Positions 3,705-6,242 are shown, counted from the stretch's first letter. The stretch is 32,000 nucleotides of DNA from Moraxella nasovis (GCF_022701215.1 NZ_CP089976.1:1110001-1142000); one strand, 5' to 3'. Numbers and translations: made by a program. The notes: generated from the letters alone by a model not told the origin.

Positions 3705-6242
3705 CACTTTTTCGCTTGCATTGACATTCTTACCGCTAACGGTTTCAGTCGCAGTTACGTTTTTACCGCTGATAGTACCCTCAGTTGTGGTGATGTTGCC
3801 TGTTGATGTTAGGCTATCGACACTCGTTGCACCTAATGTACTTTTACCTGCTTCTAGCGTACCGCCTTTTAGCTTGCCTGTCGCTGTGACATTAGTAACA
3901 TTGATACTGTCTTTTAGGCTAACCTGTACTTTGGTACTACCATCAACATTGTCAGTGATAACTTTGGTATCAATATTTTTGGCATCACCTGCGACGGTTA
4001 GGGTCATGCCATCGCCCAGTTTTTGGGTGTCTGTTGTGTCGGTATCACCTTTCACCTTAAAGCCTTTTTCTAGGGTTGCCTTGGTGGCGTCTGCGGTGGC
4101 TTTTGCATCATCAGCGACTCCCTTAGCTTCTTCAGCTTTTGCTTTAGCGTCAGTCGCCTCTGCTTTAGCCTCACCAGCAGTAGTATTTGCTTTTTCAGCT
4201 TTTTGCTTGGCTTCATTAGCAACACCTTCTGCTGCAGTTGCTTTTTGGCTTGCAGCGTTGGCGGTGCTTTCTGCTGTCGTGGCTTTTTGTGTTGCTGTAT
4301 TAGCCGCATTTTGAGCATTGGTGGCGGTTTGGCTTGCAGTATTGGCGGTACTTTGGGCGTTCTCTGCAGCGGTCTTGGCCTCGTTTGCCTTATTTGTGGC
4401 GGTTGTGACCTGACCATCTACATACTGCTTGTTGGTTAAGTCTGTGTTGTCTGTTGGCGTATGGCTAGATTTGATGGCTTTTGTACCTGCATTGATGCCA
4501 GTATTATTAATAGTCGTGCCAGCAACGCTTAAAGAGCCATTTGTGCCGAGATCCACGTCTTTGGCTAAACTAATTTCTAAACCACTTTTTTGGTTCTCAC
4601 CACTTCCTTCGGTAAACGATTTAACCGTGATATTTTTGGTAGTGGTTGCCGTTGATGCGGTGGTTGGTGCCGTGCTACCACCTCTGATATTAAGTGTTTC
4701 ACCCAGTTTTTTGGCGACTGCATTGCCCGTATCACCTTGGAAATTCATCGCTTTTTCTGCTTTTTGGGTGACGGTGGTAATCAGCGTTGCTTGGTTTTTA
4801 ATGGCTTCGCTGTTCTTTCCAACTTCTTTTTCAACTTCTTGTTGTTTTTCAGAGACTTTTACTGACATATTATACAGCTGTGAGCCGTTGATGGCGTCAG
4901 TGCTGTCTTCGGCGATTCGTCCTGCCGCTACGTTTTGGATTTGGCGGTATTGTCTTTTATAGTCACTTGCAGTGGCTTTGGTGTAGGTTGATGGGTCGGC
5001 ATCTTTATCGCCTATATACACCACTTCTTTTTTGACTGTGATTTGTTTTGTTTGTGCTGCCTCACCCTCTTTTTTGGGGAGTGTTATTGTTTCTGGAACG
5101 TCTTCTACTTTTACAATGACTTTTTTATCAGGGTTTGTGGCGACGATACCACCTACAGAGACGACACCAATCACTTCACTTTCTTTTGAACCTGCAAATG
5201 GGGTCAAATCTGATCCCGGTGTAGCATCTGCTCCATAAGTATAGGTGACGCCATTGACGGTAACTTCTGATTTGGCGGTAGGGACTTGTGGCGTTGTGGT
5301 AATCGAGTCATTACCCAATGCGACAGAGTTGGCTAGTACCGCTTTTGCATTTGTACCAAAAGCTAAGGCATTAGCAGCGGTGGCTTGGGAGTTTGTACCC
5401 ACGGAGACGGTGTTTGTTTCGGTGGCTTGAGCTTGTGTACCAAAGGCGAAAGTATTGTCTTTTAAAGCGTTACTTTTTACACCCAAGGCGATGGCATTAG
5501 CACCATTAGAGATCGCCCCTACACCAGCTGCGATAGACTGCTCTGAGTTAGCTTTTGCACCTGAACCTAATGCTAATGAGGCATTACCGCCTGATGATGC
5601 CTGAGCACCAATGGCAGTTGCTACAAAGCCGCTCGCCTTGGCATTAGTACCAACAGCAATAGCAGATGAGCCTGTAGTGACGGTTTTTGAACCAATAGCA
5701 ATGGCTAATGAGCCACTAGCTTCAACCGTTTCTGTATCGCTTGTACCCCAATCTTGATCTTCAACTCGCACACCTGTATATTTTTCATATTGTTGTTTAT
5801 TATAAGTAGTATTAAAATCGCTAGGATCATCATTACCAATAGCAATTGAACCACCTCCAGATGCCTTAGCTTGAGCACCTAAAGCCAATGCCTGCTCACC
5901 ACTAGCTTTGGCATGAGCACCTATCGCTGTAGAGCCTTGATTATCCTTAGCTTCTGCAGATGCACCTATCACGAAAGACTGCGAATGACCTCTGCCACTT
6001 GCCTTAAAACCCCCATTGGTGCCGTCTGTCTTTACCGCCCATGCTGGCGTGATACTCGCCCCGATGACCGCAAGCATAATCGCACTCACCGCAAAGACAC
6101 GCCCCCCCCCAGAGCTTGCACCGACTGAGACGGTGTCGGTGCTACCGACTGTGCTGTTTTTCTTACACGCTTTGGCGTATTCTGACACAGCAGCATAAGT
6201 GCCTGTGGCTTTATTAAAGACGACGCGATAGATTTTGTTCAT
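1..6242 (-). CDS. Trimeric autotransporter adhesin (YadA / Hag-MID-like), N-terminal 2080 codons. The rest of the stalk and the membrane anchor lie beyond the left window edge.
   Basis: I translated the minus strand by hand from the ATG at 6242-6240 down to about 2580 with no stop; the rest consists of exact copies of translated sequence. The SD aggag (complement of 6251-6255) sits upstream. The N-terminus MNKIYRVVFNKATGTYAAVSEYAKA is an extended signal peptide region, followed by a hydrophobic core and ITPAWA/VK cleavage (aa 69). About aa 85-340 carry 14-residue YadA-head repeats (SIAIGNDD, AIAVGTNAKASGFV, ATAIGAQASSGGNA, SLALGSGAKANSEQ ... NSVALGNDSITT, VNGVTYTYGA). Neck motifs are RQIQNVAAGRIAEDSTDAINGSQLY (4872-4955) and GQIKNIKDGTEAGDAITKGQL in each repeat. 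An Ala-rich heptad coiled coil spans 4068-4409. The ORF is missing from the track only because it is edge-truncated. Confidence 0.9.
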   Translation of the reverse strand, partial: MNKIYRVVFNKATGTYAAVSEYAKACKKNSTVGSTDTVSVGASSGGGRVFAVSAIMLAVIGASITPAWAVKTDGTNGGFKASGRGHSQSFVIGASAEAKDNQGSTAIGAHAKASGEQALALGAQAKASGGGSIAIGNDDPSDFNTTYNKQQYEKYTGVRVEDQDWGTSDTETVEASGSLAIAIGSKTVTTGSSAIAVGTNAKASGFVATAIGAQASSGGNASLALGSGAKANSEQSIAAGVGAISNGANAIALGVKSNALKDNTFAFGTQAQATETNTVSVGTNSQATAANALAFGTNAKAVLANSVALGNDSITTTPQVPTAKSEVTVNGVTYTYGADATPGSDLTPFAGSKESEVIGVVSVGGIVATNPDKKVIVKVEDVPETITLPKKEGEAAQTKQITVKKEVVYIGDKDADPSTYTKATASDYKRQYRQIQNVAAGRIAEDSTDAINGSQLYNMSVKVSEKQQEVEKEVGKNSEAIKNQATLITTVTQKAEKAMNFQGDTGNAVAKKLGETLNIRGGSTAPTTASTATTTKNITVKSFTEGSGENQKSGLEISLAKDVDLGTNGSLSVAGTTINNTGINAGTKAIKSSHTPTDNTDLTNKQYVDGQVTTATNKANEAKTAAENAQSTANTASQTATNAQNAANTATQKATTAESTANAASQKATAAEGVANEAKQKAEKANTTAGEAKAEATDAKAKAEEAKGVADDAKATADATKATLEKGFKVKGDTDTTDTQKLGDGMTLTVAGDAKNIDTKVITDNVDGSTKVQVSLKDSINVTNVTATGKLKGGTLEAGKSTLGATSVDSLTSTGNITTTEGTISGKNVTATETVSGKNVNASEKVTTKDLDVTNEIKVGEAPKKGEKDTRLTITKDGQIKNIKDGTEAGDAITKGQLDTTVEKLSKAADNSSFIAKATKSEGGEFESNRPVITKEQAIDFLKTGKALPTKATENEQSEGEFINADDVITYDAGKNIKIVQDAGKFTFATKDNVEFKNLTTTGTATFNGPAHFNKGQNVNGEIFHTGNTTQFGNTKQYGDNHLYGHQAVEGNQTVGGNQTVDGKATFNDTATFNKGQNVNGEIFHTGNTTQFGNTKQYGDNHLYGHQAVEGNQTVGGNQTVDGKATFNDTATFNKGQNIKGDIAHTGNTTQVGDTTQIGNTKQYGDNQIIGNQDVKGNQTIGGDQTVDGNSHVKGDQTVDGKTTTKDLEVTNEIKVGEAPKKGEKDTRLTITKDGQIKNIKDGTEAGDAITKGQLDTTVEKLSKAADNSSFIAKATKSEGGEFESNRPVITKEQAIDFLKTGKALPTKATENEQSEGEFINADDVITYDAGKNIKIVQDAGKFTFATKDNVEFKNLTTTGTATFNGPAHFNKGQNVNGEIFHTGNTTQFGNTKQYGDNHLYGHQAVEGNQTVGGNQTVDGKATFNDTATFNKGQNVNGEIFHTGNTTQFGNTKQYGDNHLYGHQAVEGNQTVGGNQTVDGKATFNDTATFNKGQNIKGDIAHTGNTTQVGDTTQIGNTKQYGDNQIIGNQDVKGNQTIGGDQTVDGNSHVKGDQTVDGKTTTKDLEVTNEIKVGEAPKKGEKDTRLTITKDGQIKNIKDGTEAGDAITKGQLDTTVEKLSKAADNSSFIAKATKSEGGEFESNRPVITKEQAIDFLKTGKALPTKATENEQSEGEFINADDVITYDAGKNIKIVQDAGKFTFATKDNVEFKNLTTTGTATFNGPAHFNKGQNVNGEIFHTGNTTQFGNTKQYGDNHLYGHQAVEGNQTVGGNQTVDGKATFNDTATFNKGQNVNGEIFHTGNTTQFGNTKQYGDNHLYGHQAVEGNQTVGGNQTVDGKATFNDTATFNKGQNIKGDIAHTGNTTQVGDTTQIGNTKQYGDNQIIGNQDVKGNQTIGGDQTVDGNSHVKGDQTVDGKTTTKDLEVTNEIKVGEAPKKGEKDTRLTITKDGQIKNIKDGTEAGDAITKGQLDTTVEKLSKAADNSSFIAKATKSEGGEFESNRPVITKEQAIDFLKTGKALPTKATENEQSEGEFINADDVITYDAGKNIKIVQDAGKFTFATKDNVEFKNLTTTGTATFNG
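6102..6110 (-). repeat. Homopolymeric G9 tract on the coding strand (C9 on +) inside adhesin codons 45-47 (signal peptide)
   Basis: The coding strand reads gca agc tct ggg ggg ggg cgt gtc (ASSGGGRV). The tract length currently keeps the frame open. Confidence 0.95.

Follow-up and report, generated by a model that had tools for sequence, protein, structure and literature searches.

A run of nine G residues lies within the signal-peptide codons of a giant trimeric autotransporter adhesin gene in a 32,000-nucleotide stretch of the Moraxella nasovis genome (GCF_022701215.1, NZ_CP089976.1:1110001-1142000; hereafter the window, with positions counted from its first letter). This tract, G9, probably acts as a simple-sequence contingency locus that turns the adhesin ON and OFF by slipped-strand mispairing, which is the most likely mechanism to judge from the sequence of the gene and of its relatives. 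We favor a switch because of the codon bias within the adhesin gene, the avoidance of G/C runs in related DNA, and the behavior of the M. catarrhalis hag gene, which was used as a positive control.

The adhesin gene is located on the minus strand and begins with an ATG at 6242, preceded by a Shine-Dalgarno-like AGGAGA (6250-6255, minus strand) that could be read directly from the sequence at a spacing of 7 nucleotides. No stop interrupts the open reading frame (ORF) over the 2080 codons between this ATG and the window's left edge, and positions 1-6242 thus hold the 5' part of a gene of more than 2080 codons. The N-terminus of the encoded protein reads MNKIYRVVFNKATGTYAAVSEYAKACKKNSTVGSTDTVSVGASSGGGRVFAVSAIMLAVIGASITPAWA. 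Pfam placed an ESPR motif (PF13018, the extended signal peptide of type V secretion) at residues 1-45 (E=5e-14), followed by YadA_head repeats (E=2e-22). Structural relatives in the PDB were the heads and necks of BpaC, AtaA, YadA, UspA1, EibD and SadA, and NCBIfam models for EmaA, Ata and YadA matched below threshold. The head repeats lead into a neck and stalk, an alanine-zipper coiled coil, and then perfect tandem repeats. By its ESPR-type signal peptide, YadA-like head repeats, and neck/stalk, the product is a trimeric autotransporter adhesin (type Vc). The tandem repeats occupy window 1 to about 3686 (minus strand); each is 1071 bp (357 residues) long, they are 100% identical, and at least 3.4 copies are present, with the array continuing past the window edge. 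Since the repeats run off the window, the membrane anchor is not visible, and the C-terminal anchor lies beyond the left edge. Repeats of 180 bp are nested inside the 1071-bp units. The 1071-bp array is likely to be a substrate for recombinational size variation, and it is also a hazard for assembly.

The extended signal peptide comprises codons 1-69 (6036-6242, minus strand) and has a clear order: the ESPR motif at residues 1-45, a variable linker that includes three glycines, Arg48, a hydrophobic core at 49-63, and AWA at 67-69, where the sequence predicts the cleavage site. G9 forms the end of the variable linker, immediately before Arg48. On the plus strand the tract appears as nine C residues at 6102-6110, in the context cg-CCCCCCCCC-agag, corresponding to exactly nine G residues on the coding strand. 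It starts at nucleotide offset 132 and thus covers nucleotides 133-141 of the ORF, or codons 45-47 (GGG GGG GGG), flanked by TCT and CGT. The tract is uninterrupted, exceeds 7 nucleotides, lies within an ORF close to its 5' end, and is in frame, which would correspond to the ON state of the proposed switch. The RNA structure around it had a z-score of -1.98, which is not notable. A terminator-like match at 6115-6101 was dismissed, as it consisted only of the G run pairing with GCTC.

The effect of changes in tract length was determined by rebuilding the ORF computationally with 5-14 G residues. The frame was open with G6, G9 and G12. With G5, G8, G11 and G14, a stop codon was reached five codons past the tract (GVSLR*), the TGA at 6086-6088 (minus strand), giving products of 51-52 residues for G8 and G11; for G8, with one G lost, the product is 51 residues long. 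G7, G10 and G13 ended at the TAA at 6004-6006 (minus strand) and gave products of 78-80 residues; for G10, with one G gained, the product has 79. A change of a single unit in either direction thus causes premature termination, and since the hydrophobic core is lost in both shifted frames, export would be impossible. The initial annotation of this DNA had given the tract its coordinates, strand, codons, flanks and in-frame state, all of which proved right on re-reading. It had also placed the tract in signal-peptide codons and predicted that gain or loss of one G would truncate the protein before export; both statements agree with the domain order and the rebuilt frames, in which the stops are reached before the core is made.

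A run of this length is not expected by chance, as had been supposed on the grounds that the genome is moderately AT-rich, a fair description of a window with 44% G+C. Two G/C runs of at least 9 nucleotides are present in the window, compared to 0.07 expected under a model of independent and identically distributed bases. Matches to G7 numbered 9, whereas dinucleotide shuffles gave an expectation of 0.59 and no shuffle reached 9. In 295.5 kb of related Moraxella and Psychrobacter DNA, only one G/C run of at least 7 nucleotides was seen versus 13 expected from composition; such runs are therefore normally avoided. By this measure, the Moraxella and Psychrobacter genomes examined avoid long G/C runs except where regulation is possible.

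Codon usage within the adhesin points in the same direction. GGG accounts for 6 of its 240 Gly codons, and three of these make up the tract, leaving 3 of 237 (1.3%) elsewhere. The other Gly-Gly-Gly of the protein (residues 129-131) is encoded as GGA GGT GGT, and the remaining 19 Gly-Gly pairs are built from GGT or GGC, apart from a GGG GGT at residue 77. GGG is more frequent in the other 18 genes, where it makes up 14.6% of Gly codons. Three consecutive GGG codons would have a probability of about 2e-6 with the usage of the adhesin itself and about 3e-3 with the 18-gene background. With GGG so scarce elsewhere in the gene, codon usage does not account for the tract. It has been kept against the expectation from both codons and composition, and it is the nucleotide run, rather than the Gly3 peptide, that appears to be maintained.

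The single long run in the related DNA is itself a G9 tract, found in M. caviae CCUG 355 (contig L001, 3016-3024). It lies in the 18-nucleotide spacer of a near-consensus promoter (TTGCAA, TAGAAT), 25 bp upstream of an ORF of 350 residues (3049-4101), and is a candidate phase-variable promoter.

The hag gene of M. catarrhalis, which encodes the Hag/MID adhesin, provided a positive control for the behavior of such a tract. In five closed genomes, the Mid/Hag ORF tract has been reported to contain 6, 7, 9, 10 and 8 G residues, and more than 7 mononucleotides was used as a working minimum for likely variation (PMC7302503). We used the exact M. catarrhalis Fis protein to collect ten genomes at the prmA-fis-hag locus (L088-L097). 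Their hag G runs were 5, 7, 7, 8, 8, 9, 9, 9, 10 and 12 nucleotides long. Five of the ten ORFs stop at 30-43 residues, four continue without a stop as far as the locus extends, and one passes the tract and stops at residue 278. The variability of the 5' poly(G) tract of Hag/MID, which the initial annotation had mentioned, is thus borne out by tracts of G5-G12 with matching open and truncated ORFs.

Other hag and Hag-like alleles were observed along the way. In one of the ten genomes (L092), a change from ACG to ACA shifts the phase of the G9 run, which reads directly into TAG. In the M. catarrhalis assembly SRR12287082 (L082, 8001-14208), the hag G run is interrupted as GGAGGGAG and two ORFs, of 458 and 1605 residues, take the place of a single one, which looks like a locked tract combined with a separate disruption. 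A contig resembling M. nonliquefaciens (L081) encodes a Hag-like adhesin with a G13 tract at the Hag site, in codons 28-32 (3082-3094). Around 220 bp upstream of its ATG there are about 11 copies of GTTCT (2735-2785), and this gene hence has two simple repeats.

The description of the M. nasovis adhesin as homologous to Hag/MID holds at the level of the protein family, but not in the sense of an orthologue. BLASTP of the window adhesin against the Hag-like protein P0133 gave 33% identity over residues 1-286, and the best matches among 1.84 billion representatives were 36-38% identical. The locus also differs: in M. nasovis the adhesin is divergent from parE, whereas in M. catarrhalis the order is prmA-fis-hag-purH. 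Finally, the poly(G) tracts occupy different aligned positions. The alignment places the Gly run of Hag at residues 28-31, directly after AEYAKSHS, and the window run at 45-47, where Hag has a gap or residues other than Gly. Orthology with Hag/MID was therefore rejected on the basis of identity, neighbors and tract position (about 29-32 versus 45-47). As the M. nasovis tract is not at the Hag position, the analogy is functional rather than inherited. Both tracts fall in the same general place, the length-tolerant signal-peptide linker, and would act by a common mechanism, but their origins are most likely independent.

In the proposed mechanism, replication slippage at nine G:C pairs would add or remove a G at a rate far above that of base substitution, provided that slippage reaches a useful rate in M. 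nasovis. With G9, G6 or G12, the ribosome would read two to four glycines in the length-tolerant linker, and the adhesin would be exported (ON). Tracts of G8 or G10 would shift the frame ahead of Arg48 and the core, translation would terminate with a product of 51 or 79 residues, and the surface would lack the adhesin (OFF). Because the change is reversible, we propose that a population always holds both states, between which host immunity or the colonization niche would select. Expression would then follow tract length, and the rest of the gene would presumably be intact.

A rival explanation is that the three glycines are incidental: a short flexible stretch may be needed before the hydrophobic core, a G run would encode it neutrally, and any slippage would come along without being selected. 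Other trimeric autotransporters commonly have Gly- and Ser-rich linkers separating the ESPR motif from the hydrophobic core, and G9 is the in-frame state in the sole available genome. We nevertheless consider this explanation unlikely. The near-absence of GGG from the rest of the gene, including the other Gly-Gly-Gly, and the roughly 13-fold depletion of long G/C runs in related DNA speak against neutral encoding. Furthermore, among 59 ESPR-bearing cluster representatives, the only Gly run in the linker belonged to the Hag-like protein, in which it is the known switch.

It is also conceivable, if very unlikely, that the state seen here has no biological meaning, either because the homopolymer was miscalled during assembly or because the gene is inactivated elsewhere. 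The at least 3.4 perfect 1071-bp repeats are hard to assemble, the C-terminal anchor falls outside the window, and the adhesin protein is missing from protein collections that contain all the neighboring M. nasovis proteins. On the other hand, 2080 open codons with a canonical ATG, a Shine-Dalgarno sequence and an ESPR start speak against this reading, and a random miscall would more often have broken the frame. An error in the count would not alter the fact that a long G run occupies this position.

Several observations weigh against the ON/OFF switch itself. With one public M. nasovis genome, no length variation has been seen, and a single assembly may give the wrong length for a homopolymer. 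Scanning metagenomes for the two tract flanks separated by 3-18 nucleotides gave 0 matches, a word-index search with adhesin residues 1-79 gave one candidate with no score, and a search with residues 1-200 returned four matches, all at or below 32% identity. The collections searched thus yielded no second M. nasovis sequence. The full HMMER scan of 1.84 billion representatives, queried with residues 1-330, returned best identities of 36-38%, nothing above 40%, and not the adhesin itself. The adhesin protein was absent from collections of 15 billion proteins, in which eight of its neighbors had exact matches (ParE UNU72576.1, NusA UNU72591.1, and others). Since the neighbors are present, the adhesin gene may be marked in the record as a pseudogene or lack an annotation. 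The 3' part of the gene, membrane anchor included, is beyond the window and may be disrupted. The tract is also displaced from the Hag position, about 17 codons further downstream.

The neighborhood of the gene was compared through ParE. An exact look-up of the M. nasovis ParE protein led to one contig, and its nearest relative among the matches listed was 84% identical. In a genome scan with ParE, the best of the matches listed reached 83%. The four loci of the closest listed relatives (82-84%) contained no adhesin, no G/C run, and no intergenic DNA that could be aligned.

The second long homopolymer in the window is a G12 tract at 6750-6761 (plus strand; C12 on the adhesin strand). It falls within the 927-bp spacer that separates the adhesin gene from parE, upstream of both start codons, by 508 bp for the adhesin and by 409 bp for parE. 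A perfect TATAAT (6723-6728, plus strand) is found 21 nucleotides before the tract and a TAAATT directly after it, neither of which belongs to a good -35/-10 pair. There was no convincing sigma-70 site around G12 on either strand, no ORF across it, and no Rfam family, and the intergenic ORFs had no Pfam match. The best promoter candidate for the adhesin, selected by consensus match, is TTGTAT-18-TAAAAT with a TG-extended -10 (about 6390-6382), at 6382-6411 on the minus strand, far from G12.

Within 660 bp, the 5' end of the adhesin gene has two long G/C runs, which is unlikely to be a coincidence and recalls the tract upstream of M. catarrhalis UspA1, whose effect is transcriptional and graded. 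The UspA1 tract contains 11, 6, 9, 8 and 8 G residues in the same five closed genomes (PMC7302503) and is listed at 29 bp upstream of its ORF (Table 1 of PMC7302503). The M. nasovis adhesin might likewise be governed by two independent homopolymers, with G9 acting as a translational ON/OFF switch and G12 having a graded effect on transcription, although we regard this combination as doubtful. If true, Hag-type and UspA1-type mechanisms would be combined in a single gene, with tracts that had arisen independently of those in M. catarrhalis. G12 might instead be a phase-variable element within a plus-strand transcript that starts from the TATAAT at 6723-6728 and runs toward parE or an unannotated RNA.

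Two perfect tandem repeats were observed elsewhere in the window, both of them intergenic. One, (TTTTTTATT) x3.3, occupies 9212-9241 between parE and a symporter gene, and the other, (AGCCAATGATG) x2.9, is found at 13204-13235, downstream of an aminotransferase gene.

According to PMC13618153, M. nasovis is a recently named isolate from the sheep respiratory tract. The literature searched yielded nothing on its surface biology. A phase-variable giant adhesin, if true, would be the first predicted contingency locus of M. nasovis, and it would bear on the use of the adhesin as a vaccine or diagnostic antigen, as has been argued for Hag/MID (PMC7302503). The mechanism itself is textbook knowledge, to which the M. 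nasovis adhesin adds an example, as a predicted rather than a demonstrated switch. The location of the tract at a different site in a non-orthologous adhesin suggests more than one origin of poly(G) switches in the ESPR linker within Moraxella.

The M. nasovis tract would belong with a general class of homopolymer contingency loci, which includes those of Neisseria and Haemophilus and the poly(A) tract in the ORF of M. catarrhalis UspA2H. These would share with it slipped-strand frameshifting in the 5' part of the ORF of a surface protein, but involve another base, other genes and other species. UspA1 resembles the M. nasovis adhesin in that a G run, of 6-12 nucleotides in UspA1 and G12 in M. 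nasovis, is associated with a trimeric autotransporter gene; however, the UspA1 tract is 29 bp upstream, compared to 508 bp in M. nasovis, where it is a poly(C) run on the adhesin strand. Hag/MID differs in coming from a human rather than a sheep host, and its length variation is known, whereas the M. nasovis tract was read from one genome. It is similar in coming from the same genus and the same class of protein, with an ESPR signal, a YadA-like head, and a length of roughly 2000 residues or more. In both adhesins, a pure G run is embedded in the signal-peptide codons, multiples of three correspond to the ON state, as predicted in the case of M. nasovis, and a change of one G shortens the product to a few tens of residues (PMC1931440; Table 1 of PMC7302503).

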